DNA of 64,000 nt from Phycisphaerae bacterium (GCA_035356615.1 DAOQSN010000007.1:56192-120191); one strand, 5' to 3'. Counted from the stretch's first letter, positions 25,457-44,287 are shown. The notes: generated by a model not told the origin, from the letters alone. Numbers and translations are program-made.

Positions 25457-26128
25457 TCACGATCGGTGGGCGTTGCGCTGCTCCACCAGCGCCTCCGTGG
25501 CCGAGCGCCGCACGTCCGACATCTGGTAGAAGCAGCTGACCACCGTCGGCACCAGCACCACGAAGGCCACCAGCAGCGTGCTCTGCCGGGCAAACCCGGC
25601 AAACGAGCGGTACACCGACGGCGCGGACATGCTCAGCACCGCCAGCGCCGACACCAGCAGCATGGAGCCCTCCAACGCCGTCAGCACGATGGTCACCTGC
25701 CGCAGGTTCAGATGGGCCAACCCCAAGCCCAGGAACGCTCCCAACCCACCCGCGACCCACATCGCGGCCGTCGGCAGATGGAAGCCGCCGACGAACTGCG
25801 CCAGCATGAGCCCGCCCGCGCCGGCCCCCAGGAGCGCGATCCCATGCAGGCCCAGCACGTACCCGACCACGCCGCCGACCAATGCCGCCCCCAACGCGCA
25901 CAGCCACACCGAGCCCGACGACCCCAGCAGCGCGTGCGCCACGCCGATCCCGATTAACGCGTACGTGAATGCCGCCGACACGCGCCACAGCCGCCACCCG
26001 AACAGCATCAGCACGGCCGAGCCGACCAGCAGCGGCAGGACCGCCATCGGTCCGATGTGCTCCAGAAACGCCACCCACTTGCAGGCAAGCTGATCCACGT
26101 GCAGGCCCTCCCCATGCGGCGAGGTCAC
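25457..26128 (-). CDS. polytopic membrane protein (DUF4203/TMEM198-like), second of two
   Basis: About six Gly/Ala-rich TM helices. The start is uncertain (GTG at 26128 or internal starts). Confidence 0.55.
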   Translation of the reverse strand: MTSPHGEGLHVDQLACKWVAFLEHIGPMAVLPLLVGSAVLMLFGWRLWRVSAAFTYALIGIGVAHALLGSSGSVWLCALGAALVGGVVGYVLGLHGIALLGAGAGGLMLAQFVGGFHLPTAAMWVAGGLGAFLGLGLAHLNLRQVTIVLTALEGSMLLVSALAVLSMSAPSVYRSFAGFARQSTLLVAFVVLVPTVVSCFYQMSDVRRSATEALVEQRNAHRS

Positions 26129-26366
26129 GCCCGCGCACGGCCCGGTCCGGTAACCGCGCGCAGTGCTTCGTCAAGCCGGTAGACCAGAGTAGTGTACGAT
26201 ATGCCACGCGCGGGGGTCGTTGGTTCGCTTCCGGCACGCGCATCCTCATGCTGCCCGCCGTGCCCACATCCACCGCACGCGCGACCCGGCAGAGGTCGTG
26301 GTTGCGAAGGCATGGTTGCCCACAATTGCCGTCGCGCCAGGGGATGCCACCCGCGGACCGGTGCCG

Positions 26367-27191
26367 TCATTTCGACTTGGGTTTGTCACTGTCCGCCGGA
26401 GCCGGCGAACGCTGCCGGGTGAACACCGTCTGGAGGAACAGCGACGTCACCAGGAAAGCCCCGACCGCCAGCCCCAGCAGCGCCTGGGACCGCGCGTCGC
26501 TGAAACCACCGGTCGGACCCCACTGACTGAACAGCATCACCGCCCCACCGGCCGCCAGAAGCGTCCCCAGCACCGACGTCGACGTAATCAGCGCGAACCG
26601 CGCCGCCAGCAACCCCACCAGCATCCCGACCAGCATCGCCAGCGCCCCCAGCGCCGAGCCCAGCCGGGCGGCCGCGGCATCCTGCTCGCGCACGTAACCA
26701 CCGAACTGCGTCACCCACGCTGCCGCCGGGCAGCGGGCCGACGGCTGACCCTCGCTCACCGGCGGAAAGGCCTCGCTTTCCGGCGGCAGGATGCTCTCCA
26801 GATGTGTCTCGAAGCTCGTCATGTACGGCTGGAGCCGCAGGAAACTGTAGCCCCCGACCACCAGCGTGGCCAGCACGCCCGACATCAGCAGCCCTACCCA
26901 GAAACGAAAGGCATGATAGCCGATCATCCCGATGAGCAGCGCCGCGATCGGCACGCACACATACGGCGTCAGGTCCACCGCGACCGCGAAACCCCAGCCC
27001 GCCCACGCCCCCACGGCGATAAACCACGTCGTCACCACCGGCCGGGCGAGCTTCGCGCCCAACACGCCGATCCCCAACCCCAACAGCAACAGCACGATCC
27101 CCAACGGCACCACGCCGAGCTTCACGATCACCGGCGCATGCTCGGCCGCAACCAGCCGAACCTGCTCGACAAACTGTACCACGTCATTCAT
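26367..27191 (-). CDS. polytopic membrane protein (DUF4203/TMEM198-like), first of two, immediately downstream of the ftsQ-like gene
   Basis: Amphipathic N-terminus, then multiple TM helices. Lies 47 nt after the ftsQ-like stop on the same strand. Confidence 0.6.
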   Translation of the reverse strand: MNDVVQFVEQVRLVAAEHAPVIVKLGVVPLGIVLLLLGLGIGVLGAKLARPVVTTWFIAVGAWAGWGFAVAVDLTPYVCVPIAALLIGMIGYHAFRFWVGLLMSGVLATLVVGGYSFLRLQPYMTSFETHLESILPPESEAFPPVSEGQPSARCPAAAWVTQFGGYVREQDAAAARLGSALGALAMLVGMLVGLLAARFALITSTSVLGTLLAAGGAVMLFSQWGPTGGFSDARSQALLGLAVGAFLVTSLFLQTVFTRQRSPAPADSDKPKSK

Positions 27192-27238
27192 GTGCAGACC
27201 TCCGCGGCCGCCCGCGCCCCGCCGGCGCCGAGCCCGGC

Positions 27239-28126
27239 TCAGCCGGGAACCGCAAACCGATCCGGAAACGTCGAAATGTCAATCACCGCGTGCCCGGCGT
27301 CGGCGCGCCCGCTACGGCGGTGGTTCTCCCGCAGCAGCGCCAGTTTCTGCGCCGGTGTGTTCTCCTCGACCTCCCGACCGGGAGCCGAGCCCCAGCGGAT
27401 GCGCCCGCCCGCGCGGTCCGTCGCCAACTCCAGGTGCGGGCCGTGTCGGTTGCGCCGCCCGCCGTAGTTTTCGACCAGCACGGCCGTAATCTGTGCCGTA
27501 AACGGCTCGCTGGAGAGCAGGTGCCACAACGACAGGGCCGCTTGCAGATCGTCCCCCTCCCACCGCTCACCGGGCTGCGGGGCTCGAGCAGCGACTCCCT
27601 GCACCAGCGGCCAGGCGGGGTCGTATGTATACGTGCCCGGAACGCGCGTCCCAGTCGCATCCACGAGGAGGAATTCCGCGCCCTGCTGCACCATCACCAC
27701 CGGCACCCGGTAGTCACACGAAACGCGTACGACACCGTCTCCACCACGGCGCACGTACCGCACCTTCGAGACCCACCCCAGCGCGCTGAGGCGCTCCGCC
27801 AGGTTCGGACAGAGTGACTCTTCCGTCCAGAGCACCTCGAGCAACGGCAGGAGCTGCGCCCGCAGTTCACCCTCCGCGAGGCGCTGCACGGCCGGTGGCA
27901 GATCAACCAGCAGTAGTGCCGGCCGTTCCACCCGACTCGTCACCTCCTGCTGAACGTGCGCGTCCAGACGCTGCCAGCCGATGCCGCCGCCGACCAGCAA
28001 CGCGCCGGTGGCCAGCGTCACCGCGCCAACACGCAGCCCCCGCAGGCCGTGCTCCCGAAAGAAAGCACGCCAGCGCCCGGGCACAGCGGGCCGCGGAGTC
28101 TTCTTTGTCCGACGAGTACGAGCCAT
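27239..28126 (-). CDS. ftsQ: FtsQ/DivIB-like cell-division protein
   Basis: Basic N-terminus, a single TM segment (VGAVTLATGALLVGGGIGW) and a periplasmic POTRA-like region. It occupies the canonical position after ddl in a dcw cluster. Confidence 0.55.
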   Translation of the reverse strand: MARTRRTKKTPRPAVPGRWRAFFREHGLRGLRVGAVTLATGALLVGGGIGWQRLDAHVQQEVTSRVERPALLLVDLPPAVQRLAEGELRAQLLPLLEVLWTEESLCPNLAERLSALGWVSKVRYVRRGGDGVVRVSCDYRVPVVMVQQGAEFLLVDATGTRVPGTYTYDPAWPLVQGVAARAPQPGERWEGDDLQAALSLWHLLSSEPFTAQITAVLVENYGGRRNRHGPHLELATDRAGGRIRWGSAPGREVEENTPAQKLALLRENHRRSGRADAGHAVIDISTFPDRFAVPG

Positions 28127-28155
28127 GTCACGTTACGTCCGAACTTCCGACACAA

Positions 28156-28193
28156 CCCCTCCCCCCCGGGAGAGGGGTAGGGGTGAGGGTCGA
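28156..28193 (+). repeat. family-B repeat CCCCTCCCCCCCGGGAGAGGGGTAGGGGTGAGGGTCGA
   Basis: Near-identical 3' half to 14291-14316. Confidence 0.85.
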
Positions 28194-28226
28194 ACCTCCC
28201 CCGTCACCCAGCCCTCTGTCCCAAGT

Positions 28227-28363
28227 ACGTGTTTAGCGTGGGTGCCATGCCCTCACCCGCCGCAGGCGGGGGTGGGCATGGGGTCGGGCCTAAGAACATG
28301 CTTACCCGCGACCGCTGTCGCGGGAAAGCATGGCACCCCGGCGCCCGTCTGCGCTAAACACGT
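28227..28363. repeat. 137-bp segment bounded by inverted repeats ACGTGTTTAGCG / CGCTAAACACGT
   Basis: Contains a 37-nt hairpin (28245-28281, CCATGCCCTCACCCGCC GCA GGCGGGGGTGGGCATGG) and a family-E copy (28305-28337). The 14-nt CTGCGCTAAACACG recurs at 28413-28426, overlapping the ddl stop. Confidence 0.7.
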
Positions 28364-28417
28364 ACTCTCCCAAGGGCAAGAGGCGTCCCGCCTGCCTGCG
28401 CCAGGCACCTGCCTGCG

Positions 28418-29392
28418 CTAAACACGCGCCAGCGACAACTCCACGATGCGCTGACACAGTCGATCGAACTCAATCCCGACCCGGGCGGCAGCCTTCGGCA
28501 GCAGCGAATGGCTCGTGAACCCCGGAATCGTGTTCACCTCCAGCGCAAACGGCCGACCCGTCGCCTCCTCCACCATCCAATCCACGCGTGAAAACACCGC
28601 GCAGCCGAGTGCCTGGTGCGCGCACACACTCAGCTCCTGCATGCGCCGCAGCAGCTCCTCCGGCAGATCAAAGTCAAACAGGTACTTCGTCTCATCACTG
28701 AGATACTTCGCGTGGTAATCATAGAACTCACGCGCCGGGCGAATCTCACAAACCGGCAGCGCCTGATCACCCAGGATGCCGACGGTAAACTCACGCCCGG
28801 CGATAAAACGTTCCAGCAGCGCCTCCCCGTACTTGCTGACCAGTTCGCCGACCGTCGCACGTAGCGTCTCCGGCGTCCGGACGATGCAGGTATCCACGCT
28901 GCTGCCGGACGCCACCGGCTTGAGCATGGCCGGCGTGGCGAAACTCGCCACGACCTGCGCCAGGTTGCCCCGGTCCGCGACGGCATACGGCGGCGTCGGC
29001 ACACCCGCCCGTTCAAAGCAGCGCTTGGCCTCGACCTTGTTCATCGCCCGCGCCGAGGCCTCCGCGCCCGAGCCGCAATACGGCACGCCGCGCCGGTCCA
29101 GCTCCGCCTGCAACGTCCCATCCTCACCGAACGGGCCGTGCAGGGCGATGAACACGAAATCTCCCGCGTCCTCCAGCGCCGAAAGGTCATCCGGCGTGAT
29201 GTCCCGCAGGCGCACGCGATGCCCGAGGCGAGCGAGCGCCGCATGCACTGCCCGCCCGCTTTCGAGGCTGACCTCGCGCTCGCCCCCGATGCCGCCGGCC
29301 AGCACGGTGATGCTCAACGGACGCGCGGGCGCAGCCTCGGGTCGATTCGCCGCCGTCCGCACGCTCGTCCGGGCCTGGCCGGGTTTGCCCAT
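28418..29392 (-). CDS. ddl: D-alanine--D-alanine ligase
   Basis: ATP-grasp Ddl pattern (HGPFGEDGTLQ, EVNTIPG). Confidence 0.9.
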   Translation of the reverse strand: MGKPGQARTSVRTAANRPEAAPARPLSITVLAGGIGGEREVSLESGRAVHAALARLGHRVRLRDITPDDLSALEDAGDFVFIALHGPFGEDGTLQAELDRRGVPYCGSGAEASARAMNKVEAKRCFERAGVPTPPYAVADRGNLAQVVASFATPAMLKPVASGSSVDTCIVRTPETLRATVGELVSKYGEALLERFIAGREFTVGILGDQALPVCEIRPAREFYDYHAKYLSDETKYLFDFDLPEELLRRMQELSVCAHQALGCAVFSRVDWMVEEATGRPFALEVNTIPGFTSHSLLPKAAARVGIEFDRLCQRIVELSLARV

Positions 29393-29406
29393 CGTCTCTC
29401 GCCCCC

Positions 29407-30285
29407 CTACCAGATATCCACTTCCGGTTCCAGCTCAACGCCGAACCGGTCACGCACGGTATCTCGAATGGACTCCATAAGGTCCAGCACGTCCCCAGCC
29501 GTGGCGTCCTTGTCCGCCACGATGAAGTTGGCATGCCGCGTCGAAACCGCCGCCCCGCCGCGGCGCATGCCTTTCAGTCCCGCTTGGTCAATGAGCCGGC
29601 CCGCGTAATCGCCCGGCGGGTTCTTGAACATGCAGCCCGCGCTGCGATCCGCCAGCGGCTGGGCCGCCACCTTGCGGGCCAGCGCGGCATCGAATCGCGC
29701 CCGCGACTCGCGCGGATCATCCTCAACCAGCTCCAACCAGGCTGACAACACGATCGCCTCGCCCAGGGCACTGTGCCGGTAGCCGAAGCCAAGGCGGTCC
29801 CGATCCCACGTTTCGACGTGGCCGGCGGGCGCAAGCACGTCGGCCTCACGCACGCGGTCGCCGATCGAGCCGGCCGGACCGCCCGCGTTCATGCGCACGG
29901 CGCCGCCGATCGTACCGGGAATCCCGGCCAGACACTCCAATCCCGCCAGCCCTTCGTAGCTCAGTGATTTCACCAGGGGCATCAGATCGACACCGCCGCC
30001 CACCCGCACGTTGGTCCCCTCACGCCGAATCCGCCGAAACGCCGGCTGATCCAGCCGCACGACAACGCCGTCGAACCCGTCGTCACGCACCAGCACATTC
30101 GCCCCAGCGCCGAGCACCTTCACCGGCACGCCGGCCTCGCGCGCCCGGCAGACCACGGCCGCCAAGTCGTCCGCGTCCCGGGGGCGCACGAGGTATCGTC
30201 CCCGCCCGCCCAAACGGAACCACGTCATGCGACCGATGGGCGCGTCGAGCTCCGTCCTATTGGCAAACTCGTCCCACCAGCTCAT
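29407..30285 (-). CDS. murB: UDP-N-acetylenolpyruvoylglucosamine reductase
   Basis: FAD-binding MurB pattern (FRLGGRGRY, GAGANVLV, GCMFKNP). AAGGTGG upstream of the ATG at 30285. Overlaps the murC 3' end. Confidence 0.9.
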   Translation of the reverse strand: MSWWDEFANRTELDAPIGRMTWFRLGGRGRYLVRPRDADDLAAVVCRAREAGVPVKVLGAGANVLVRDDGFDGVVVRLDQPAFRRIRREGTNVRVGGGVDLMPLVKSLSYEGLAGLECLAGIPGTIGGAVRMNAGGPAGSIGDRVREADVLAPAGHVETWDRDRLGFGYRHSALGEAIVLSAWLELVEDDPRESRARFDAALARKVAAQPLADRSAGCMFKNPPGDYAGRLIDQAGLKGMRRGGAAVSTRHANFIVADKDATAGDVLDLMESIRDTVRDRFGVELEPEVDIW

Positions 30286-31687
30286 CCGCCACCTTCCACA
30301 CGTCACCCGCCCCCATCGTCAGCACCAGGTCCCCTTCCGTCACATGCGTGGCTACGTGCTCGGCGGCCGCGGCCAGGGTGGGCAGGTGCCGGGCGTGTCC
30401 CCCGCGCTCGGCAATGCGGTGGACGAGCTCGGCCGAGCCGACCCCCGCCATCGCCTCCGCCGTCTCGCGCGCCCCGTACACGTCGGGCACGATCACCTCG
30501 TCGGCCTGGCTGAACGCACCGGCAAACTCCTCGAGCAGATGCCGCGTGCGCGAGTACTGGTGCGGCTGGAAGACCACCCAGGTACGCCGCGGCTCATAAC
30601 GCGAACGCACCGCCTCGATCGTCAGACGGATTTCCGTGGGATGGTGGGCGTAGTCATCGACGACCGTAATCCCGTGCCCCTGCCCCCGCATCGTCAGCCG
30701 GCGACCCACGCCGTGAAACTCCGGCACTGCCGCCGCGACGGCCTCCACATTCGCCCCCGCGTCATTGGCGAGGGCAATGGCCGCCAGGGCATTCGCCACG
30801 TTGTAGCGCCCGGGAAGAGCCAGCGAGGTCGTCAACACGTAGTCCCCGCCGTGCATCACGTCGAACCGGTAGCAACCGCGCGTGCACACCAGGTTGACCG
30901 CCCGCCAGTCGGCGTGCTCCCCGAAGCCGAAGGTCGCCACGCGCGACGCGGCCGACCGCCCTACCTCCACCGCCCAAGCGTCATGCGCGTAGCAGACCAG
31001 CAGTCCGTCGGGCGCGACCTGGCTCGCGAACGCCCGGAACGCGTCCACGATCTCCGCGAAGCTGCCGTAGCAGTCGAAGTGGTCCGGCTCGACGTTGAGC
31101 ACGGCCCCGTAGCGCGGGTTCAGGTGCAGGAATGACCGATCGTACTCGCACGCCTCGACGATCAGGTACGGATCAGCACCCAGCCCGCCGTTCCCCCCAA
31201 GCTGGTCGGCACAGGCGCCTACCACGTAGGAGGCCTGCACCCCGCCGGCGCGGAATAGGTGCGTTGCCAGGGCTGTCGTCGTGCTCTTGCCGTGCGTGCC
31301 CGCGATGGCCACCCCCGCCCGGTCCTCCATCAGCAGGCCCAGCAGCTTGGCATACTTGATCAGCGGGACGCCCAGCTCCCGCGCGCGTTGACACTCGGGA
31401 TTGCCGTCGGGCACGGCCGCACTACGGACCACGAGCCGGACGTCCGGCGTCACCTGCTCCGCCCGGTGCCCGATGGCCACCCGGATGCCGCGCGCGGTGA
31501 GCCGACCGACACCCTCGAAAGGCTGCATGTCGGAGCCGGAGACGACGGCACCGGCCTCCGCCAGCAGGCAGGCAGCCCCGTTCATCCCGCAGCCGCCGAC
31601 GCCCACCATGTGCACGCGCAGACCGGCCCAGCGCCCCACCGGCACCTGCTCCCTCAGCATCGTGGGCGCGCCCATCGACTCGGACAT
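30257..31687 (-). CDS. murC: UDP-N-acetylmuramate--L-alanine ligase
   Basis: VHMVGVGGCGMNG and GTHGKSTTT Mur-ligase motifs. AGGAAGGA Shine-Dalgarno. Confidence 0.9.
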   Translation of the reverse strand: MSESMGAPTMLREQVPVGRWAGLRVHMVGVGGCGMNGAACLLAEAGAVVSGSDMQPFEGVGRLTARGIRVAIGHRAEQVTPDVRLVVRSAAVPDGNPECQRARELGVPLIKYAKLLGLLMEDRAGVAIAGTHGKSTTTALATHLFRAGGVQASYVVGACADQLGGNGGLGADPYLIVEACEYDRSFLHLNPRYGAVLNVEPDHFDCYGSFAEIVDAFRAFASQVAPDGLLVCYAHDAWAVEVGRSAASRVATFGFGEHADWRAVNLVCTRGCYRFDVMHGGDYVLTTSLALPGRYNVANALAAIALANDAGANVEAVAAAVPEFHGVGRRLTMRGQGHGITVVDDYAHHPTEIRLTIEAVRSRYEPRRTWVVFQPHQYSRTRHLLEEFAGAFSQADEVIVPDVYGARETAEAMAGVGSAELVHRIAERGGHARHLPTLAAAAEHVATHVTEGDLVLTMGAGDVWKVADELVGRVCQ

Positions 31688-31781
31688 GGACGGATCCTTC
31701 CTGCTAATCGTGAGGCTTCGGCCCTCCGGGCTTTGACCGCTCCTTTGTACCCCGGGCGCCGCGGATAGTATATCGGGAAAC

Positions 31782-32948
31782 TCAATAACTCGCCTGCACG
31801 GATTCGCACGACACGCCCCGCGCCAGCATCAGCACACGGTCGGCGATCCTCCCGGCCGCGTCCGCACATCCCATTCGCCGCGCCGCCCCTGTCAGCGTTT
31901 CCAGCATCTGATCGTCAGTCATCAACTCGTCCAGCACGGCACCGAGCGCCGGACCGTTCTGCTCCACGTGCGTCGTATCCGCCACGATCCGCGCCGCCCC
32001 CCGCCGCTCCAGGCACCGGGCGTTGGCAAGCTGATGCATATCACGGTGAAACGGATACGGCATCAGCACTGACGCCCTCCCCACGGCCGTGATCTCCGCC
32101 AGCGTCGAGGCTCCAGCCCGCGACAGCACCAAGTCCGCGGCCGCCAGCGCCGCCGGCATCGCTTCCGTGTACGACAGCACCCGCGCGGGCAGCCGCCGCC
32201 CCTGGTAGGCGGCCGCCACCCGTTCGTAGTCCAGCTTCCCAGTCAGGTGCAAGACCTGCCAACCCCCGTGCTGCTCCAGGCGGTCGAGGTTCGCCACCAA
32301 CGCGTCATTCAGCGTGCGCGCGCCCTGCGAAGCACCCGTGGCCAGCAGCGTCCGACGTGCCGGATCGAGGTCAAAGTGCCGGACACCGGCCGCTCGGTCC
32401 GGCGTCCCGAACCCCGGCCGGATCGCGCAGCCCAACGCCTCCAGCCGCGTGCCGCGGGGGAAGTGTCGAATACTGTCTTCCCACTGGACAAAGACGGCAT
32501 CCATCCGTCGGGCGAGAAACCGGTTGGCCCGGCCGGGGATTGCGTCGGGGTTGAGAAGGGCTGCCGGAATGCCCGCCCGCAGCGCCTCCAGAACCGCAGG
32601 AACCGAGGCCAACCCCCCCGTTCCCAGTACCAACATCGGCCGCTGCCGCTCAAACCACGCCCTCGCCTGCCGGCGCGCCCGTGACAGGCCTCGCAGGATG
32701 CCCGGCCAACGCCATGGCGCAGGGTGCAATGGCGGAAGCGATTGACGCACCAGCGTACACGCCTCGCGGCCACCAAGAATCTGCTCGTCAATCGCCCGGT
32801 CCGTCGCGAAGAAGACGAACCGCAACTGCGCCAGTCGCTCACGCAGCACTTCCGCGACCGCAAGCGCGGGGTACAGGTGTCCACCCGTGCCGCCGCCCGC
32901 CACGGCAACTACCGGATCCCGCACGTCCGTCGCAGTGCCCGCCGACAT
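31782..32948 (-). CDS. murG: undecaprenyldiphospho-muramoylpentapeptide beta-N-acetylglucosaminyltransferase
   Basis: AGGGTGGHLYPALAVAE motif. The ATG at 32948 is preferred over the GTG at 32999. Confidence 0.9.
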   Translation of the reverse strand: MSAGTATDVRDPVVAVAGGGTGGHLYPALAVAEVLRERLAQLRFVFFATDRAIDEQILGGREACTLVRQSLPPLHPAPWRWPGILRGLSRARRQARAWFERQRPMLVLGTGGLASVPAVLEALRAGIPAALLNPDAIPGRANRFLARRMDAVFVQWEDSIRHFPRGTRLEALGCAIRPGFGTPDRAAGVRHFDLDPARRTLLATGASQGARTLNDALVANLDRLEQHGGWQVLHLTGKLDYERVAAAYQGRRLPARVLSYTEAMPAALAAADLVLSRAGASTLAEITAVGRASVLMPYPFHRDMHQLANARCLERRGAARIVADTTHVEQNGPALGAVLDELMTDDQMLETLTGAARRMGCADAAGRIADRVLMLARGVSCESVQASY

Positions 32949-33048
32949 CGTCTTCCCGTCCGTGCTGATTCGCGGCACGTTCGTGCGCGGCACAGCCACC
33001 TAGGCGGTACCGCAACAGCCTCACGAGCGTGGGACCACGCACACTCGG

Positions 33049-34311
33049 TTAGTCATCCGCCGTGCGCGTGCTCACCACCGGGTCGCGAGCACGCGCCGCC
33101 AACCCCGCCAGGAGTCCGAACGCGACCGCGAACGTCAGCACTCCACTCCCCCCGGCCGACACCAATGGCAGCGAAATCCCCTTCGTGGGCGCCGCCGCAC
33201 TAACGACCGCGATGTGCATGGCCGCTTGCAGCCCAATCGTCACCGTAACACCGAACGCCAGCAGCCGCTCAAACCGAGACCGAGCGTGTTGCACCACGCG
33301 CATGCCGAAGTAAACAAGCGCCGCATACAGCCCGACAACCGCCAAGGCCCCTACGAGCCCCGTTTCTTCACAAATTACAGAATAAATGAAATCCGTGCGG
33401 CTCTCTGGAACGTAGCCGTACTTCTGCACGCCGGCCCCGAGCCCCATCCCTGCCACACCGCCGGACGCAATCGTCACCAACGACTGCGTGGCGTGGTACG
33501 CAGCGCCTTGGGGATCTGCCTCCGGGTTGGCAAAGGCCGTCAGCCGCGCCACCCGGTACGGCGCCATCTTCACGAGGCCGATCGCGCCGGCCATGCCCAG
33601 CAGAGCCAGCACGGCCAGATAGCGCCAGCGACAGCCCGCCACCAGCAGCATCATTGCCCCAACCGTCCCGATCAGGGCTGCGGTGCCGAAGTCCTCGATC
33701 CCGACCAAGGCCACACTCGCCCCGATGAACAGCGAACCGGGGACGAAGCCCGACCAGAAGCCGCGCGGATCATGGCGTCGCCGCCCAAACCAGCCTGCCA
33801 AGGCACCCGCGAGCGCCAGCTTCGCCAGCTCGGAGGGCTGAAAACGAAACCCCCAGGAGGCCGGGCCCACGGGCAGCCACCGCTGCGACCCATGCCGCGC
33901 ATGCCCGATGCCCGGCACCAGCGTGATCACCAGCACGGCCGCCACCAATGCGAACACCACGAAGGGGAGCACCCGGCGTGTGGGTCGCCACGAGACTACC
34001 GCGGGCGTGAGCCTGGCCGTCGCTACCATGAGCCCCAGCCCGAACAGAGCGAAGATCACCTGCCGCCCGAACGGCGTGAGCCACCAGCGCGGCCCGAACA
34101 GCGAGTGATCGAGCGACGCGCTCGTCGAGGCAACCATGACGACACCGATCGCCATGAGCGCGCAGGCGATGAGCATGATGGGGCTCGACGTGCCGGCCCC
34201 GATCGCCGCGGCCGCGCTTCGCGCCGAGGCCGCACCGGAGGCAGCGCCGACCACAGCCCCATCCTCATCCGCGTCCATCGCCCGATCACCGCCACGGACC
34301 AGTTGCGTCAT
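33049..34311 (-). CDS. ftsW: SEDS-family peptidoglycan glycosyltransferase FtsW/RodA
   Basis: Polytopic with a SEDS pattern (SELAKLAL, PESRTDFIYSVICEE, GISLPLVSAGGS). The track N-terminus (34312-34434) reads through the family-A repeat, so the start is taken at ATG 34311. Confidence 0.85.
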   Translation of the reverse strand: MTQLVRGGDRAMDADEDGAVVGAASGAASARSAAAAIGAGTSSPIMLIACALMAIGVVMVASTSASLDHSLFGPRWWLTPFGRQVIFALFGLGLMVATARLTPAVVSWRPTRRVLPFVVFALVAAVLVITLVPGIGHARHGSQRWLPVGPASWGFRFQPSELAKLALAGALAGWFGRRRHDPRGFWSGFVPGSLFIGASVALVGIEDFGTAALIGTVGAMMLLVAGCRWRYLAVLALLGMAGAIGLVKMAPYRVARLTAFANPEADPQGAAYHATQSLVTIASGGVAGMGLGAGVQKYGYVPESRTDFIYSVICEETGLVGALAVVGLYAALVYFGMRVVQHARSRFERLLAFGVTVTIGLQAAMHIAVVSAAAPTKGISLPLVSAGGSGVLTFAVAFGLLAGLAARARDPVVSTRTADD

Positions 34312-34337
34312 CCTATGCCCCCCACCAAGTAGCCCCA

Positions 34338-34483
34338 CGCAACGGGGAGACCGACAGTTGAGACAGAGTGGCATGGCCAAGCGCAGCGCCGCCATGCTCT
34401 CCCCTGGGCGAGCGGGTGGCTGCTCGCACGGCATGCCGGCGCCTTCGGCTTGGGCATGCCACCCCGCTGGTTTCCCATCTGCG
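34338..34483 (+). repeat. family-A ~150-nt quasi-palindromic element, copy 2 (mraY|ftsW gap)
   Basis: GTGGCATGGCCAAGCGCAGCGCCGCCATGCTC...GCATGCCGGCGCCTTCGGCTTGGGCATGCCACC with outer arms CGCAACGGGGAGACC / GGTTTCCCATCTGCG. Confidence 0.9.
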
Positions 34484-34497
34484 CGGTCCCATAGAGC

Positions 34498-35640
34498 TCA
34501 ACGCAGCTTGATGGTCGCCAGGGCGCACCCGGCGAACAGCGCCGCCAGCAGCCAGAACCGCACCACCGTTTGAGGCTCACTCCAGCCGCCCAGGTGGAAA
34601 TGATGATGCAGCGGCGAGCAGCGGAAGATGCGTTTGCCGCCGCTGAACTTGTAGTATCCCACCTGGATGATGACCGAGATCGCCTCCACGACAAACACCC
34701 CGCCGGCAATAAGTAGCATCAACTCCTGCCGGGTGACGATCGCGACGAACCCGATAAGCCCGCCCAGCGGCAAGGAACCCGTGTCCCCCATGAACACCCG
34801 CGCCGGGTGGCAGTTGTACCACAGGAACCCGAGGCACGAACCCAGTATCGCCCCGCAGAGGATCACCAGCTCGCCCCCGCGCGGCACGTACGGAAAGAGC
34901 AGTTTGTGGGCAAGCCCCTCGGTGCCCCCGATGTGCGCCAGGATGGCGAACACCAGCGCGCACAAGGCCACGCACCCGGACGCCAGCCCGTCCATCCCGT
35001 CGGTCAGATTGACGGCGTTGGACGACGCGGTCATCACGATGACCGTCACGGCCATGAACGCCAGCGCTCCGAGTTGGAGCCCCGCCTTGTAGAACGGTAC
35101 CGACAACACGCGGTACGCCGGCACCGTGCCCGCCTCCACCAGCGGACTGAGCTGGATGTAGTTGCTCTGGCCGTGGCGGAAGATGTAGTAACCCAGCACC
35201 ACGCCGAGGCCCATCTGGAAGAGCAGCTTCTCGTAGCCCTTCAGGCCGACGCGGGATCCCGTTCGGCGCCCGGCCGTCAGCTTCAGCCAGTCATCCACCA
35301 GCCCCAGGGCCCCGAGCCACACCAGGCATACCAAGCTCATGCGGATGTAGAAGTTGCTCAGGTCGGCAAGCAGCAGGACGGCCAGCCCGATGGCCCCGAG
35401 GATCAGCGCCCCGCCCATCGTCGGGACGTTGGTCTTGTCACGCGTGAGCTCGTTGAGCGTGGCGTGGTCGAACTCCGGCCGGTCGCCGACCTTGTAGCGA
35501 ATGAGCTGGCGGATGACGCGCGGGGCCACAACCAACACGAGCAGGAAGCAGAACAGCGCCGCGGCCGTCGCGCGAAACAGGGGATTCTCGTAGGCGTAAT
35601 GCCGTCCGGCGAACAGCTCTTGCAGGAGATGATAGAGCAC
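34498..35640 (-). CDS. mraY: phospho-N-acetylmuramoyl-pentapeptide transferase
   Basis: MraY motifs (NLTDGMDGLA, FMGDTGSL, HHHF). GTG at 35640 gives MLYHLLQELF, with GGGAGA 11 nt upstream. Confidence 0.9.
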   Translation of the reverse strand: MLYHLLQELFAGRHYAYENPLFRATAAALFCFLLVLVVAPRVIRQLIRYKVGDRPEFDHATLNELTRDKTNVPTMGGALILGAIGLAVLLLADLSNFYIRMSLVCLVWLGALGLVDDWLKLTAGRRTGSRVGLKGYEKLLFQMGLGVVLGYYIFRHGQSNYIQLSPLVEAGTVPAYRVLSVPFYKAGLQLGALAFMAVTVIVMTASSNAVNLTDGMDGLASGCVALCALVFAILAHIGGTEGLAHKLLFPYVPRGGELVILCGAILGSCLGFLWYNCHPARVFMGDTGSLPLGGLIGFVAIVTRQELMLLIAGGVFVVEAISVIIQVGYYKFSGGKRIFRCSPLHHHFHLGGWSEPQTVVRFWLLAALFAGCALATIKLR

Positions 35641-35753
35641 GCGGCATGATCTCCCGAACAAGCACCCGCTACAGCGTCGCCGGTACACCCCCCGTCCATG
35701 GCGGGTGGAAGTCGGGGGCTAACTGGCCCGAAGAATCGGAGTTCCCGCGCTCG

Positions 35754-35786
35754 CCCTCACCCTGCCCTCTCCCGGGGGGAGAGGGG
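35754..35786 (-). repeat. family-B repeat, inverted orientation (murF|mraY gap)
   Basis: CCCTCACCCTGCCCTCTCCCGGGGGGAGAGGGG. Confidence 0.8.
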
Positions 35787-35811
35787 TGCCAGCGGGTGAC
35801 GCCAGCGAAGC

Positions 35812-37218
35812 TCAGGCGACCGCGGCCGGGGCGGGAATGTGGGTCTCCAGCCGCCGCACGAGGCGATCCAGCTCCATGCCCCGTGAGCCCTTGATCCACA
35901 CCACGTGCTCCTCGCCCATCAACGTCGCCAGGGCCGCCAACGCACGCTCCTGATCTTCACAGACAAGGACCCGCGTGGACCCCGTTTCCCCGTGCAGGGA
36001 GCGCGCCGCCTGCACCGAAACGGGTCCCACCACGATGAGGGTCTCGATTCCCGCAGCGGCGACGGCCTCCACCACCCGACGGTGGTACTGGCCGGCGGTC
36101 GGCCCCAGTTCGAGCATATCGCCCATGACGAACACTCGCCGCCCGGCCGGGGCACGCTGCAAGGCCGCCACCGCGGCCAGCATGCTCGGCGGGTTGGCGT
36201 TGTAGGTGTCGTCCACGACCGTAACCCGGCCGACCGTGAAGCGGCGGGTTCGCCCGGCCGGCGGGGAGAACGTGCGGAGCCGCTCGACGATCTCCTCCGG
36301 CGCCAGGCCGAACCACCGCCCGACGGCAAACGCGGCGGCCGCGTTGGCGGCATGGTGCGGACCGGGCATCGGCAGCCGCACGGTATAGCGTCCATCCAGG
36401 ATGAACGTCGTCTCGTCGATGCTGCCGGCTACGTCTGTAATCCTCAGGCGTGCCTCCGGCGCCAGGCCGACCGTCACCAGACGCCCGTTGAACGTCCAGG
36501 GCAGGTGCGGGCGGATCTCGCGTCGGTCAATGTTAATCACGGCGAAGCCGTGGTCGCGTACGTGGGTCAGCAGGGAAGCCTTCTCGGCCGCGATCGCGCG
36601 GATGTCGCCCAAGCCCTCCAGGTGGGCCTCGCCAATCGACGTAATGACACCGACGTGCGGCTTGACCATGGCCGCCAGCGACGCCACCTCGCCGGGGGCG
36701 TTCGTCCCGATCTCGACGATCAGGTAGCGGTCGTCCGCCCCCGCGGAGAGGAGCGTCAGGGGGACGCCGAGGTGGTTGTTGAAGCTGCGCGGAGCGCTAC
36801 GGCCCCTGAGCGTGGGCGCCAGGATGTGGTCGATCATGCGCTTGGTGGTGGTCTTGCCGTTGCTACCGGTGACGGCGATCAGCACGGTCGAGGCCGGCAT
36901 GACGCTCCGCCGGTAGAAGACGGCAAGCTGCCCCAGAGCGGCCACGGCGTCGGGCACCACGAGCCGGGGCACCAACCGTCCCGGCGCTTCGACGGGCCCG
37001 CTGCCGCGCTCGACGAGACAGGCGACAGCCCCGCGCCGCGCCGCCTCCTCGACGAACTGGTGCCCGTCGAACGTCTTGCCCGACAGGGCCACAAACAAAT
37101 CGCCCGACTCGACCACCCGGGAGTCCGTAACCACGCGCTGGACCTGCACCGGTTCGATGCCGGCCGGCAGGGGTGCCCCCATGGCCACCGCCGCCTCATC
37201 GAGCAACATGGGAATCAT
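35812..37218 (-). CDS. murF: UDP-N-acetylmuramoyl-tripeptide--D-alanyl-D-alanine ligase
   Basis: Mur-ligase motifs (TGSNGKTTTK). The ATG at 37218 overlaps the murE stop as ATGA. Confidence 0.9.
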   Translation of the reverse strand: MIPMLLDEAAVAMGAPLPAGIEPVQVQRVVTDSRVVESGDLFVALSGKTFDGHQFVEEAARRGAVACLVERGSGPVEAPGRLVPRLVVPDAVAALGQLAVFYRRSVMPASTVLIAVTGSNGKTTTKRMIDHILAPTLRGRSAPRSFNNHLGVPLTLLSAGADDRYLIVEIGTNAPGEVASLAAMVKPHVGVITSIGEAHLEGLGDIRAIAAEKASLLTHVRDHGFAVINIDRREIRPHLPWTFNGRLVTVGLAPEARLRITDVAGSIDETTFILDGRYTVRLPMPGPHHAANAAAAFAVGRWFGLAPEEIVERLRTFSPPAGRTRRFTVGRVTVVDDTYNANPPSMLAAVAALQRAPAGRRVFVMGDMLELGPTAGQYHRRVVEAVAAAGIETLIVVGPVSVQAARSLHGETGSTRVLVCEDQERALAALATLMGEEHVVWIKGSRGMELDRLVRRLETHIPAPAAVA

Positions 37219-38726
37219 GCGACATGCTCCGCCATCCTTGACGCCGCCAGCCACGCCCGGGCTGTTTCCCGATCGTCGAAGTGTAGCACCTGATCTCCGA
37301 CGAGTTGATAGTCCTCATGCCCCTTCCCCGCAATCAGCACGGTGTCGCCGGGCCCGGCCTCGGTCAACGCCCGTTCAATGGCCTCTCGCCGGTCCGGGCA
37401 AACCTCAACCCGGCACCGCGGCTTCGCGCTGAAGCCCAGCAGAATCTCGTCGATGATCGCCTCGGGCCGCTCGGAACGCGGGTTGTCATTGGTCACCACG
37501 GCCAGGTCCGCGTTGCGCTCGACCACGGCCGCCATGCGCGGGCGTTTGGTGCGATCGCGGTCCCCGCCACAGCCGAAGACGCAGATCAGCCGACCCGGGG
37601 TGAGCGGTCGCAGCACGCTCAGCACGTGCTCCAGGGCGTCGTCCGTGTGGGCGTAGTCCACCAGCACCGTGAACGGACAGCCCGGCGGCTCGACGCGTTC
37701 GAGGCGCCCGGGTACGCCGCCCAGCCCCTCCAACCCGGTGCGAATCGCCGTCGGGGGGATGCCGAGTGCCGCCGCGCCTGCGGCCGCCGCCAGCGCGTTG
37801 TGCACATTGTGCCGCCCGATGAGGGGCAGGCCTACCTCCAACGCGGGGCCTGCGCCCTCGACTATGAATCGACTACCACGGCGCGAAAGCTCCAATCCGC
37901 GTGCGCACACCTCGACCGTCGCGTGATCGATCCCGTAACGCAGTGTGCGCCGCGCCGCACAGCCGGTCAACATCCTCTCCCACGCGGGGTCGTCGGCATT
38001 CACGACCGCGACGGCCTCGGCATCCAACCCGGCAAACAAACGCCGCTTGGCCGCCAGGTACCGGTCCATCGTCTGGTGATAGTCCAAATGGTCACCGGTA
38101 AGGTTCGTGAACACGCCGGCCGCGAAGGCCAGCCCGTCGCAGCGGTGTTGATCGAGGGCATGGGAGGACACCTCCAGCACGGCGTCCGTCGCTCCGGCAT
38201 CGGCCGCCTCCGCGAGCAACCGGCACACCTGTATGGAACCCGGCGTGGTGAGCGGTGCCTTGCAGCGGCGGCTGATGAGGTCATACTCGACCGTCCCCAG
38301 GAGAGCGGGGCGTCGCCCGGCCGCCTGGAGGATCGAGCGCAGCAGCCACGCGGTGGTCGTCTTGCCGTTCGTACCCGTGATGCCCACCAGCCGCAGGACA
38401 CGGGGACCGCCGGTCCCCACGCCGTAGTACGTCGCCGCCACTCTTGCCAGCGCCACGCGCACGTCGGGCACCTGCAAGGCGAGCACCCCCGCCGGCACGG
38501 GCACGTTGCGTTCGGTCAGCACCGCGGTTGCCCCGGCCGCCACCGCCGCCTCGATGAACCGGGCGCCGTCGGCCCGGTTGCCCGGCACGGCCGCGAACAT
38601 CGCCCCGGGGATGACTTCGCGCGAGTCGTCGGTCAGCACGGTAACGGGGACATCAGGGCCCCAACAGCCTTCGACCGTCGTGACGCCGGCGCGTCGAAGA
38701 AGCTCGCGTGCCGAAAAAGGGGACAT
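37215..38726 (-). CDS. murE: UDP-N-acetylmuramoyl-L-alanyl-D-glutamate--2,6-diaminopimelate ligase
   Basis: GITGTNGKTTT and the DAP-specific DNPR motif (TNDNPRSE). ATG at 38726; the alternative start is GTG at 38753. Confidence 0.9.
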   Translation of the reverse strand: MSPFSARELLRRAGVTTVEGCWGPDVPVTVLTDDSREVIPGAMFAAVPGNRADGARFIEAAVAAGATAVLTERNVPVPAGVLALQVPDVRVALARVAATYYGVGTGGPRVLRLVGITGTNGKTTTAWLLRSILQAAGRRPALLGTVEYDLISRRCKAPLTTPGSIQVCRLLAEAADAGATDAVLEVSSHALDQHRCDGLAFAAGVFTNLTGDHLDYHQTMDRYLAAKRRLFAGLDAEAVAVVNADDPAWERMLTGCAARRTLRYGIDHATVEVCARGLELSRRGSRFIVEGAGPALEVGLPLIGRHNVHNALAAAAGAAALGIPPTAIRTGLEGLGGVPGRLERVEPPGCPFTVLVDYAHTDDALEHVLSVLRPLTPGRLICVFGCGGDRDRTKRPRMAAVVERNADLAVVTNDNPRSERPEAIIDEILLGFSAKPRCRVEVCPDRREAIERALTEAGPGDTVLIAGKGHEDYQLVGDQVLHFDDRETARAWLAASRMAEHVA

Positions 38727-38839
38727 CACTGATTTGCCTGCTGTGGGTGCCACGGTCCTGGGTTACCGCCTCCGTTTCACGGGGACCTCCATTTTTCGCC
38801 GGGGGTAAACGGGAAAACCAGTGATGCTCCCTTTCCCTT

Positions 38840-40027
38840 CTAGCGACGCAGGAAGTACTCCATCAGTTCATGCCCCGGGTCAATTTGCAGGTCAGCCGCC
38901 GCAGCGTGGGTTTCATGGAAGGGCTTAGCCAGTACGGGGTGAATCGCGTGCCCAGCCAGGCAGAACGGCGGCGGTGTCCGAGTCCCCACGCGGGTGCCGA
39001 CCGGCAGGGTGTGATCCGGAGCAACAAGGATGCGCCACGCCGGGCTGGCCTGGAGTACCTCCAGAAGCGGCCCGACCAGGTGCTCGTCCAGGCGTTCGAG
39101 GGCGGCCACCTTGGCGCCCACGTCGCCCCGCCGCGCGGCCTCCTCGGCCCCGGCGGTCCGTACGACCAGAAGGTCGAAGTCCGCAAGTGCACGCCGGGCA
39201 ACCGTCGCCACCGTAGCTTCGTCCGGCTCGCAGGTGCCCTCGGCAGGGGCCACCTCGATCCAGGACCCGCCGACGTACTTCGCCAAGCCGCGCAGGAGCG
39301 GCCCGGCCGCCACCACCGCAGCCCCAAGCCCGAACCGCTCGCCGAACGGCTGCACGTGCGTTACCCGCCCCGGACCCCAAAGCCAGACGTCGGTGGCCGG
39401 ATTCTCACCCAAGTCACGCCGGACCAGGTTGACGTCGTGTCCGCCGAGGACGACGACGGCCCGTTCCGCGAGCTTCTTGAGCCAGTCGGCGCCAGGGCCG
39501 CGCGGTTCATGGGCGGCCACGGGCTGCTCGGGAATCAGGTGCGGCCTGGTGCACTTCGGCGCGAAATCAGCAGCGTCGGAGACCACCAGTAGGAACCGGT
39601 TCCCTGCGACGGGGTGGAACCGGCAGCGCGTCCCGGCGATCTGGTCGTTGAGATCCGACGCAAGCTGCTGGGCTTCGGGCGTGGACAGGCCGCCGGCGCT
39701 GAAGTCCGCCATCCGTCCTTCGACGAGCGTAACGAAGCTGCCGCAGAGGACCACCTGGTCGGGCTCCACTGGGACCCCGCCCGCCAACGCTTCCAGGTAG
39801 CCGCGTCCAGGATGCTCCGTCTGGGGGTTGTACCCCAGCAGCGCGAGGATTCCCGTGTCGCAGTCCGGGGTGAGACCCGTTGGGATCGTGTGGACCCGCC
39901 CCTGCCGACCGTGCTGGGCGATCCAGTCAAGGTGAGGCGTGCGGGCCGCCTCGCAGGGCGTACGCCCGTCGAGCTGCCGGACGGGCTCGTCGGCCGCCCC
40001 CGAAGGGATAACCAGTACGTACTTCAT
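38840..40027 (-). CDS. cofactor-independent phosphoglycerate mutase family protein (archaeal ApgM-like metalloenzyme)
   Basis: MKYVLVIPSGAADEP...GRTPCEAARTPHLDWIA...LLGYNP pattern. ATG at 40027. Confidence 0.75.
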   Translation of the reverse strand: MKYVLVIPSGAADEPVRQLDGRTPCEAARTPHLDWIAQHGRQGRVHTIPTGLTPDCDTGILALLGYNPQTEHPGRGYLEALAGGVPVEPDQVVLCGSFVTLVEGRMADFSAGGLSTPEAQQLASDLNDQIAGTRCRFHPVAGNRFLLVVSDAADFAPKCTRPHLIPEQPVAAHEPRGPGADWLKKLAERAVVVLGGHDVNLVRRDLGENPATDVWLWGPGRVTHVQPFGERFGLGAAVVAAGPLLRGLAKYVGGSWIEVAPAEGTCEPDEATVATVARRALADFDLLVVRTAGAEEAARRGDVGAKVAALERLDEHLVGPLLEVLQASPAWRILVAPDHTLPVGTRVGTRTPPPFCLAGHAIHPVLAKPFHETHAAAADLQIDPGHELMEYFLRR

Positions 40028-40240
40028 CGCGTGTGCACCCGGACAAGAAGGAGCGCGGTATAACCCGGCGTCGGGCACACGACCGGCAGCGGCGTGTGTC
40101 GACGGGGATCATACTCTACGTAGGTCTCGCGTGCGGTCAATTGAACCGGGGGGGCCGGGCGTGGCAGCCCGGACATTCCAACGCCTGCCGGCGGTGCCAA
40201 GCCGCGGGCTGCTCCCCCCCGCCGCAACAGGAGTAACCTC

Positions 40241-40531
40241 ATGCAGCGCAATTTGTTAGCGATCGTCGTGCTGGCGGCCGTCGTGCTGTATGCGCTCACC
40301 GCGCTTGGGCAGCTCCGTACCCGCGAGGAGCCCGGCGAGGGGCAGCAGCCCGCCTCCGCGGCCGTCTTTCGGGTGACCCTCCTGCCCGATCACGCGGACA
40401 GCGGCACGCCGTACTCGCAGGAGCTGGAAGCCTACCTCAACCGGATGGCCGGCGACGGCTGGCGGTTCCACTCGACGCTGGTGGCCCAGAACCGCGCGGT
40501 ACTGGTCTTCGAGCGTGTGCGGGGTCAGTAA
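40241..40531 (+). CDS. small signal-anchored protein, DUF4177-like C-terminus
   Basis: AGGAG lies 9 nt upstream. N-terminal TM segment LLAIVVLAAVVLYALTAL and C-terminal GDGWRFHSTLV...VLVFER. Confidence 0.5.
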   Translation: MQRNLLAIVVLAAVVLYALTALGQLRTREEPGEGQQPASAAVFRVTLLPDHADSGTPYSQELEAYLNRMAGDGWRFHSTLVAQNRAVLVFERVRGQ

Positions 40532-40655
40532 CCGCGGCGTCGACGGCCGGTGCACGGGCGCCGTCAGGGCGAAGCGCGGGGGCGAAGTCGGCGGCTACCG
40601 GTCTTTGCTCCCCCGGGGACGACCATGCCAACCGCGTGACCGGTGAAGAACCCAG

Positions 40656-42179
40656 GTGCGCGGACTGGCGGTGCCAGCATTGTTGACGCCGCAGGTCTCT
40701 GGTAGAACACGCCCGGTGCGTGCGCAGGAGGAGCCTCAGACGACGACGCCCGGCCCATGCATTGCCCGAGCTGACACCCGTCGCGTCGCGCGCGCGCATC
40801 CCTCCTGGTACCGACCACGAAACACGCCGACGAACGACACCCTGTCGCTCGCGGGCCGGCGCGTGCTCGTCGTGGGGCTGGGTCGCTGGGGCGGTGGGCT
40901 CGGCGTGACGCGGTGGCTCGCCGAAGAGGGGGCGCGGGTCACCGTTACCGATCAGGCCGGACCGGAGGTCCTGGCGGAGCCGCTGGCCGCCCTCGCCGAC
41001 GTAGAGGTCGCGCTGCACCTGGGCCGTCACGATCCACACGACCTGGAGGAAGCGGACCTCATCGTCGTCAACCCGGCCGTCAATAAGAAGGCGTCTGCGT
41101 TCTTCCACACCATCGTCGCGTCCGGACGACCGTGGACCACCGAGATCAACCTGTTCTGCGCCCGCTGCCCGGCGCCCGTCGTCGGCGTGACCGGCACCTA
41201 CGGCAAGAGCACGACCTGCGCGATGCTGACGGGCGCGCTGGACGCATGCGTGCAGGCGGGGCAGTTGCCGTATCGGGCGGTACACCTGGGCGGCAACATC
41301 GGGCGGTCGCTGCTGCCGGAACTGCGGGTTATTCAGCCTGAGGACGTCGTCGTCCTCGAGTTGTCGAACGCGCAGTTGGAGGACTTGCCGCAGATCGAGT
41401 GGGCACCCGCGGTGGGCGTCATCATCAACCTGTCCCCGCAACATCTGGATCGGTACAACTGCTACACAGAGTATGTCGCCGCCAAGCTCAACATCGCGCG
41501 GGACCCGCACCGCTTGAGCCGGGTCGTGGTGGGACCGCTGCCGCCGGAGGCGGAGGCGCTGCTGGGCGACATACTGGGGTCAGCTTCCGAGCGCCTGGTG
41601 CGGATCGCACCGCTGAGCGGGCCGCTGCCGTTGCACACCCCGGGGTCACACAATCAGGCGAACGCTGCCGGCGTGCTTGCCGTGTGCGATCTGCTGGACG
41701 CCACGAGGGAGCCGGCTGAGGCGGCGCTCCGGGCGTTCCCCGGCCTGCCGCACCGGTTGCAGTTCACGCGCGAGCTGGACGGCGTGCGGTATTACAATGA
41801 TTCCAAGGCAACCGCGCCGACGGCCGCTCTGACCGGCATCGCGGCGTTCACCGAACCGCTCGTCGTGCTGGTTGGCGGTCAGGACAAAGGGGTGGCGTTG
41901 GACGCCTGGGCAAAGGAGCTGGTGCGGCGCAGTCGCGTGGTGATTTGCGTGGGCGAATCCGGCCCGCGGGTGGCATCGGCCGTGCGCGCGGCGCGGGGGA
42001 CAGCCGCGGAACCGCCGGTACACCGCGTGGCCTCGCTGGACGCGGCCGTGGCGCTGGCGCACGCGGTCGCGCAGCCCGGTGACGTTGTGCTGCTTTCCCC
42101 CGGCGCACCGAGCTTCGATGCCTATCCCAACTTCGAGCATCGGGGCGAGCATTTCGCCCGGCTGGTACGGGCGCTCTGA
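40656..42179 (+). CDS. murD: UDP-N-acetylmuramoylalanine--D-glutamate ligase
   Basis: VLVVGLGRWGGG Rossmann motif and GTYGKSTT. The start is uncertain: no ATG lies upstream of the Rossmann loop, and candidates are GTG at 40656 or 40716. Confidence 0.85.
   Translation: MRGLAVPALLTPQVSGRTRPVRAQEEPQTTTPGPCIARADTRRVARAHPSWYRPRNTPTNDTLSLAGRRVLVVGLGRWGGGLGVTRWLAEEGARVTVTDQAGPEVLAEPLAALADVEVALHLGRHDPHDLEEADLIVVNPAVNKKASAFFHTIVASGRPWTTEINLFCARCPAPVVGVTGTYGKSTTCAMLTGALDACVQAGQLPYRAVHLGGNIGRSLLPELRVIQPEDVVVLELSNAQLEDLPQIEWAPAVGVIINLSPQHLDRYNCYTEYVAAKLNIARDPHRLSRVVVGPLPPEAEALLGDILGSASERLVRIAPLSGPLPLHTPGSHNQANAAGVLAVCDLLDATREPAEAALRAFPGLPHRLQFTRELDGVRYYNDSKATAPTAALTGIAAFTEPLVVLVGGQDKGVALDAWAKELVRRSRVVICVGESGPRVASAVRAARGTAAEPPVHRVASLDAAVALAHAVAQPGDVVLLSPGAPSFDAYPNFEHRGEHFARLVRAL

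Positions 42180-42589: not shown

Positions 42590-44287
<1,698 letters not shown>

Follow-up and report, generated by a model that had tools for sequence, protein, structure and literature searches.

A Phycisphaerae-type dcw cluster without ftsA and ftsZ, probably cut by a lineage-specific rearrangement upstream of murE

Planctomycetes divide without FtsZ in a manner that has yet to be explained, and among them it is the Phycisphaerae that still divide by binary fission. A stretch of 64,000 nucleotides (nt) from a Phycisphaerae bacterium (GCA_035356615.1, DAOQSN010000007.1:56192-120191; hereafter the window, ~67% G+C) carries a division and cell wall (dcw) gene cluster. On the minus strand, Pfam and NCBIfam searches recover the order murE-murF-mraY-ftsW-murG-murC-murB-ddl-ftsQ, followed by two genes for polytopic membrane proteins, here called TM1 and TM2. 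The original prediction, made from the sequence alone, had placed all of these genes where Pfam, NCBIfam and public gene calls also put them (Table 1), and had drawn attention to what is missing around them: ftsZ, ftsA, ftsI, ftsL, rsmH and mraZ, and a murD gene displaced from its usual slot. Do these absences describe how a lineage divides, or how its chromosome has been rearranged? The reading favored here, with a probability of about 80%, is that the window holds an FtsZ-less dcw cluster of the Phycisphaerae type that was cut by a lineage-specific rearrangement. Three layers of change would then be superimposed at one locus: a phylum-wide and already known layer, in which ftsA and ftsZ are gone; a class-wide layer, in which murD has left the slot between mraY and ftsW and the paralogous TM1 and TM2 follow ftsQ; and a layer confined to this lineage, in which a rearrangement between ftsI and murE would have left an ApgM-type phosphoglycerate mutase gene, a small open reading frame (ORF) and murD at that place.

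The canonical dcw cluster has the order mraZ-rsmH-ftsL-ftsI-murE-murF-mraY-murD-ftsW-murG-murC-(murB)-ddl-ftsQ-ftsA-ftsZ. The window shares with the clusters of E. coli and Verrucomicrobium spinosum the collinear, one-strand run from murE-murF-mraY to ftsW-murG-murC-murB-ddl-ftsQ, with genes that overlap or are closely spaced, but it has no mraZ-to-ftsI block at murE, no murD between mraY and ftsW, and the TM pair rather than ftsA-ftsZ after ftsQ. A codon-position G+C filter left one clear coding frame per gene and 48 candidate ORFs in the 64 kb, among which Pfam scans found no ftsZ, ftsA, ftsI, ftsL, rsmH or mraZ, and no tubulin/FtsZ or FtsA domain. Similarly, tblastn of the MraZ, RsmH, ftsL-position ORF and FtsI of relatives against the whole window returned no match, and the ~8 kb recovered to the left of the window contain none of ftsZ, ftsA, ftsI, mraZ, rsmH or other dcw genes.

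The state of this region in relatives is what decides how these absences are to be read. Related loci (at least 80 genome loci from an MraY scan, mapped by tblastn of the window proteins and by profile hidden Markov models; counts here and below are among the loci listed) include 26 in which the series mraZ-rsmH-LysM gene-132-aa ORF-ftsI lies directly upstream of murE. The 132-aa ORF, which matches no family, is named by its ftsL position only. In these 26 loci 0.1-0.4 kb lie between the end of ftsI and murE; in the window the ApgM gene stands there instead, and apgM is found at the ftsI position in none of the related loci. Because the 26 relatives keep the whole block directly upstream of murE, the window most plausibly shows a lineage-specific rearrangement breakpoint between ftsI and murE rather than gene loss, and the earlier view that the absence of ftsI, ftsL, rsmH and mraZ is a dcw trait of the lineage has to be given up. 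Set beside four Phycisphaerae-type clusters (L016, L005, L004 and L008), the window has the same genes in the same order and orientation from murE to a TIM-barrel gene beyond TM2, at 45-76% protein identity, whereas the five upstream genes are absent, apgM stands in their place, and murD and the small ORF lie divergently beyond it. Three fairly close relatives (L014, L018 and L040) likewise lack ftsI upstream of murE, and the ftsI/murE boundary thus breaks recurrently. The detached mraZ-rsmH-LysM-(ftsL-position ORF)-ftsI block would survive elsewhere in the genome.

A true further loss of ftsI, ftsL, rsmH and mraZ would tell a different story, that of a SEDS (shape, elongation, division and sporulation) protein without its class B penicillin-binding protein (bPBP) partner, in a divisome more minimal than that of other Phycisphaerae. 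This is improbable. The failure to find the four genes in the 64 kb or in the ~8 kb to the left is what such a loss predicts, and loss of both ftsI and ftsW in some Planctomycetia is described in one survey (PMC12673574). Nevertheless, the block is kept whole in the 26 related loci, near-complete conservation in Phycisphaerae is reported in another survey (PMC12283558), and the Mur genes, ftsW and ftsQ of the window are all intact, with normal coding signatures. The window, moreover, probably covers ~1-3% of the genome, going by the 2.3-5.7 Mb of chromosome-level metagenome-assembled genomes (MAGs) among the relatives. SEDS polymerases need a cognate bPBP, which also counts against a true loss of ftsI.

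A chimeric join of murE and apgM, with a canonical mraZ-to-ftsI block upstream of murE in the real genome, is less probable still and can hardly be entertained. The sequence does come from metagenome assemblies, and the break coincides precisely with the limit of a gene. On the other side, the order trpC-CAAX-glnS-murD-ORF-apgM-murE-murF is the same in contigs of four independent assemblies, made from different data sets and with different assemblers (ENA ERZ27257442, JGI 3300025784, JGI 3300025859 and Logan SRR4236648), indicating that the junction is real, and G+C stays steady at 0.67-0.70 in 2-kb bins across it. Neither repeats nor insertion sequence (IS) elements are found at the junction, and a mobile element or repeat as the cause of the break was rejected on this ground. 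What weighs against the rearrangement reading is that two of its elements are drawn from elsewhere: the genome-wide absence of ftsZ and ftsA comes from relatives and the literature and not from the organism's own genome, and the placement of ftsI, rsmH and mraZ at another site in that genome has the same two sources.

The 5' block of the relatives contains a gene that merits separate mention. Between rsmH and the ftsL-position ORF, a LysM-domain gene of ~350 aa (L016:3618-4664) is present in more than 20 Phycisphaerae loci (also L004, L005, L007, L008, L010, L011, L013, L015, L023 and others). NCBIfam links it weakly to peptidoglycan-binding or division proteins of the LysM, YneA and DipM type, and it could be another lineage-specific division gene.

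The displacement of murD belongs to a different layer from the break at murE. In the window, mraY and ftsW are separated by 63 nt, and the two genes are adjacent, without room for murD, in 39 of the 40 related loci that hold both, so that the departure of murD from this slot appears to be an ancestral, clade-wide state at the level of the class. The displacement noted in the original prediction is thus real but not special to the window. Among the matches listed, the canonical order mraY-murD-ftsW occurs only in distant MurD matches, and the nearest MurD relatives (40-55% identity) are solitary, with no other dcw gene within 10 kb. In a metagenome scan, DUF4177, apgM and glnS genes were all missing within 10 kb of murD in the nearest relatives listed, and a conserved synteny of murD with any of these three, considered as a candidate, was found in no relative examined. 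The closeness of murD to murE is therefore peculiar to the organism of the window. It had been predicted that murD would lie beyond murE on the opposite strand, after a small ORF; the position is as described, but the distance to the murE start is more likely ~2.1 kb than 1.9 kb. For murD itself, a start at 40863 is more likely than one at 40656, as all MurD homologs listed match from residues 52-68 of the longer ORF; the public call has 438 aa. The small ORF is likewise present, and four assemblies annotate it as a gene, but the DUF4177 kinship proposed for it is weaker than was thought, with a score below the gathering score of 25 bits (Table 1). The prediction of an ApgM gene upstream of murE fares better, the TIGR00306 score exceeding its cut-off, while the related "proposed homoserine kinase" model reaches 321.7 bits, under its cut-off of 446.3.

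The outermost layer, the loss of ftsA and ftsZ, depends on what the organism is. Homologs of its FtsQ come from MAGs of Phycisphaerae and Planctomycetes, its MraY is 71-76% identical to MraY of Phycisphaerae MAGs among the matches listed, and its TM1 is identical to NCBI entry PKK06_03280, "MAG TPA: Phycisphaerae bacterium". These homologies point to an uncultured member of the Phycisphaerae, in keeping with the earlier guess of Planctomycetota. As had also been noticed, ftsA-ftsZ does not follow ftsQ, which fits the published loss across the phylum (PMC12673574, PMC12283558, PMC8871954). Published surveys describe Planctomycetota as lacking ftsZ and ftsB and mostly lacking ftsA (PMC12673574, PMC12283558), and a further paper terms the absence well known and reconstructs dcw sub-clusters for the ancestor of the Planctomycetes (PMC8871954). 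For the Phycisphaerae, the published picture is of ftsZ, ftsA and ftsB lost from a fragmented cluster, and of the Mur enzymes, MraY, FtsW, FtsI and FtsQ kept (Pilhofer 2008 as cited; PMC5147048; PMC12283558; PMC12673574). The window fits this picture. An eroded, fragmented and FtsZ-less dcw cluster in Planctomycetota is an already published phenomenon, of which the window is one instance plus a lineage-specific rearrangement. As far as their accessible parts go, the surveys score presence and absence by COG (PMC5147048, PMC12283558, PMC12673574), and an incomplete search of the planctomycete dcw literature, seen in part, found no mention of TM1 and TM2 after ftsQ, of the LysM gene in the 5' block or of a class-wide move of murD.

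The SEDS gene has TIGR02614 (ftsW) as its best NCBIfam model, at 308.5 bits and under the cut-off of 337.5, with rodA at 244.6, and it sits between mraY and murG, a position that fits FtsW. MurC, MurE, MurF, Ddl and MurB act in the formation of UDP-MurNAc-pentapeptide, with MurD responsible for the D-Glu step; MraY and MurG form lipid I and lipid II, SEDS proteins polymerize the glycan, and FtsQ is a scaffold of the divisome. The cluster would accordingly be expected to make lipid II, to polymerize glycan by its SEDS protein and to keep a divergent FtsQ as scaffold.

The identity of this FtsQ could not be read from sequence models. The ORF has no Pfam match (FtsQ, POTRA_1) at E<=0.01, the NCBIfam FtsQ model PRK05529 gives E=0.042 and 13 bits, under its cut-off of 353, and a profile of 32 homologs retrieves no FtsQ from the PDB by sequence. 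An AlphaFold2 model built from the 32-sequence alignment has a mean predicted local distance difference test score (pLDDT) of 87.5 and shows alpha/beta domains that come after a long N-terminal helix (residues 18-65). Searched against the PDB with Foldseek, this model finds FtsQ structures at ranks 1-8 without exception (2vh2, 5z2w, 6h9o, 8hhf, 2vh1; E 3.5e-7 to 3.3e-5), with 2vh2_B as the best match (E=3.5e-7, probability 1.0), DivIB at rank 9 and mostly POTRA domains at later ranks. Because the best PDB matches of the model are FtsQ structures, the protein is, as modeled, probably a divergent true FtsQ, bitopic and with POTRA and beta domains. Its gene lies directly downstream of ddl, as expected for ftsQ in a dcw cluster, and one homolog bears the NCBI name FtsQ/DivIB. 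Compared with FtsQ of E. coli and Yersinia (2vh1, 2vh2, 6h9o, 8hhf), the bitopic POTRA plus beta-domain fold is the same (probability 1.0, TM-score 0.57, normalized to the target) and so is the place after ddl, whereas identity is only 13-16% and the Pfam FtsQ and POTRA_1 matches are missing. The fold thus confirms a divergent FtsQ that sequence models miss. FtsB, the usual partner of FtsQ, is reported as lost from Planctomycetota in the surveys named above.

What, then, occupies the position downstream of ftsQ? TM1 begins 47 nt past the ftsQ stop codon on the same strand. Among 16 informative genome loci, which reach beyond ftsQ, 14 have TM1 directly after it and 13 of these continue with TM2; the series ddl-ftsQ-TM1 is also present on four of five metagenome contigs checked (L166, L167, L168 and L173). 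This recurrence suggests that TM1 and TM2 are conserved members of the cluster, in the position of ftsA-ftsZ. The linkage of ftsQ and TM1 holds in the most divergent members of the TM1 family listed (L166, L167 and L173), and the FtsQ of L167 is one that was found by profile (E=1e-39). The full order murE-murF-mraY-ftsW-murG-murC-murB-ddl-ftsQ-TM1-TM2 is found again in MAG species of the Phycisphaerae, often with the TIM-barrel gene at its end; this gene, for which NCBIfam offers nothing beyond a very weak match to L-ribulose-5-phosphate 3-epimerase, comes after TM2 in at least eight related genome loci and in L168, and one gene further on in L173. At the level of the class, the consensus would thus be mraZ-rsmH-LysM gene-small ORF-ftsI-murE-murF-mraY-ftsW-murG-murC-murB-ddl-ftsQ-TM1-TM2, with murD solitary elsewhere. 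With TM1 and TM2 conserved beside ftsQ across the class, the suggestion that the neighbors of ftsQ deserve attention is borne out, as is, by the alignments, the prediction that both are polytopic membrane proteins.

The segment counts for TM1 and TM2 in Table 1 are a reading of the hydrophobic stretches in alignments, in which the TM1 motifs VLGAKLAR, FRLWVG and LQTxLTR are kept. BLASTP finds no similarity between TM1 and TM2, whereas hhalign of the TM1 family against TM2 gives a probability of 96.4% (E=1.1e-9), and this profile match indicates that they are probably old, distant paralogs. An exhaustive HMMER search returned 562 clusters of TM1 relatives at 50% identity, with a length of 260-300 aa in almost all of the 150 listed. 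Neither TM1 nor TM2 has a reliable Pfam or NCBIfam match, with Pfam giving only sub-threshold, chance-level scores, and the TM1 profile has only chance-level matches in the PDB. When 41 TM1 relatives were compared with Pfam, four gave weak matches to TM7S3/TM198-like (PF13886; best E=6e-4), and TM1 and TM2 of the window gave none. Multiple transmembrane segments and a richness in small residues are common to both sides of this comparison; PF13886 is a family of unknown function, and the resemblance carries no mechanistic information.

The function of the pair is open to more than one interpretation. The 47-nt same-strand gap suggests co-transcription of ftsQ and TM1, and it is possible, though less likely than not, that TM1 and TM2 share a transcript with ftsQ and work at the membrane alongside the machinery of peptidoglycan synthesis or division. 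More doubtful is the specific proposal that they are lineage-specific parts of a machinery for FtsZ-independent binary fission or septal peptidoglycan synthesis; where FtsA, FtsZ and FtsB are absent they might, for instance, serve as membrane partners in the recruitment or regulation of the FtsQ-FtsW-FtsI complex. It is an even bet, by contrast, that TM1 and TM2 are unrelated passengers, such as a transporter or housekeeping pair, that owe their place after ftsQ to inherited gene order and take no part in division or in the synthesis of peptidoglycan. Searches of Pfam, NCBIfam and the PDB reveal no likeness of the pair to known division proteins, and the sole signal in the TM1 family is the weak one to a domain of unknown function. 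Two Phycisphaerae loci lack the pair in the neighborhood of ftsQ, which is followed by a PrkA-like gene or by metG according to the translations (L029 and L032), and at a third (L174:3005-5334) the order is maf-TM1-TM2, where the pair is detached from the dcw cluster, yet together, beside the gene for the Maf/septum-formation nucleotide pyrophosphatase. All examples come from one class, within which conserved gene order can reflect shared ancestry and not function, making phylogenetic inertia a serious alternative, and conserved order alone is not specific, since the TIM-barrel gene, though unrelated, keeps its place downstream as well.

Like these exceptions and the restriction to one class, three further results weaken the case for a functional tie of the pair to ftsQ: a scan for promoters and terminators stayed at chance level, the gaps of 291 nt between ddl and ftsQ and of ~270 nt between TM1 and TM2 could hold promoters, and an AlphaFold model of TM1 from six sequences is too poor for use (pLDDT 56). 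Nevertheless, the passenger explanation has to contend with an ftsQ-TM1 linkage that outlasts a divergence leaving FtsQ barely recognizable, as in L167, and that persists where the genes further downstream differ. It has also to contend with the short same-strand gap, and with the presence of TM1 and TM2 in exactly the slot that ftsA-ftsZ vacated. The cluster itself adds little to what is known, and TM1 and TM2 are a modest new lead: together with the LysM gene, they are uncharacterized, class-restricted genes and concrete candidates for the study of division and envelope in cultured Phycisphaerae.

The features of the locus are collected in Table 1, with coordinates taken from public gene calls on identical sequences, which refine several of the starts.

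Table 1. Genes of the dcw locus and its immediate neighbors, in window coordinates.
Feature	Position	Strand	Evidence or remark
TIM-barrel, xylose-isomerase-like (AP_endonuc_2)	24472-25275	-	Pfam PF01261, E=9.5e-21
TM2, ~213 aa, ~7 hydrophobic segments	25457-26098	-	polytopic by alignment; no Pfam/NCBIfam family
TM1, 274 aa, ~7 hydrophobic segments and ~60-aa soluble loop	26367-27191	-	alignment; no Pfam match
divergent ftsQ (predicted)	27239-28126	-	AlphaFold2 model and Foldseek
ddl (D-Ala-D-Ala ligase)	28418-29392	-	Pfam PF07478, E=1.2e-44; PF01820
murB	29407-30285	-	Pfam MurB_C, E=1.2e-33; FAD_binding_4
murC	30257-31687	-	all three Mur ligase domains; position kept in relatives
murG	31782-32948	-	Pfam Glyco_transf_28 N- and C-terminal domains
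SEDS protein, ftsW position	33049-34434	-	PF01098, E=3.2e-86
mraY	34498-35640	-	PF00953, E=1.1e-31
murF	35812-37218	-	Mur ligase domains; 4-nt overlap with murE stop codon
murE, first dcw gene of the sub-cluster	37215-38726	-	Mur ligase domains
ApgM-type cofactor-independent phosphoglycerate mutase	38840-40027	-	TIGR00306, 335.7 bits vs cut-off 320
96-aa ORF, weakly DUF4177-like	40241-40531	+	PF13783, E=3.9e-4, 21 bits
murD, divergent from the cluster	40863-42179	+	TIGR01087, 302.9 bits vs 211.95; MurD-like_N domain

Several observations concern other parts of the window and its relatives. The closest long contig with an FtsQ relative (59% identity) is L168 (ENA ERZ21869602 ctg94604l), in which the calls for murF, mraY and ftsW are fragmented; this looks like long-read frameshift errors rather than pseudogenes and is not to be read as evidence of gene decay. 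Beyond murD, glutaminyl-tRNA synthetase (GlnRS; 42590-44932, minus strand; TIGR00440 and PRK14703 above their cut-offs) is encoded in the same window as GluRS (12702-14219, plus strand), and the GlnRS ORF has ~220 extra N-terminal codons that overlap its CAAX-protease neighbor, where public calls give 565 or 610 aa. A one-strand run of organic-acid genes extends over 48385-57350 (minus strand), with CitF (citrate lyase alpha), a fused acyl-carrier/beta subunit (ACP and HpcH_HpaI), a PrpD/MmgE-family dehydratase, an aconitase-family protein and an isocitrate/isopropylmalate dehydrogenase; a small DUF5615/PIN-like gene stands between CitF and the fused ACP and HpcH_HpaI gene.

At the left side of the window, an acetyl-CoA hydrolase/transferase carries a GNAT acetyltransferase domain as a C-terminal fusion (1816-3705, minus strand). 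A second copy of this fusion lies ~5 kb beyond the left window end (L084:17189-19081), and a DUF7619 protein and an ADP-forming acyl-CoA synthetase-like gene are found between the two copies. Two adjacent plus-strand ORFs of 244 and 343 aa (14408-15142 and 15170-16201) have good coding signatures and match neither a Pfam nor an NCBIfam family. A tRNA-Ser(GGA) (61417-61503, minus strand) is the window's sole RNA gene; it overlaps the 5' end of a long ORF for a multiheme cytochrome c554-like protein (61360-62472), indicating that the true start of this ORF lies further downstream.

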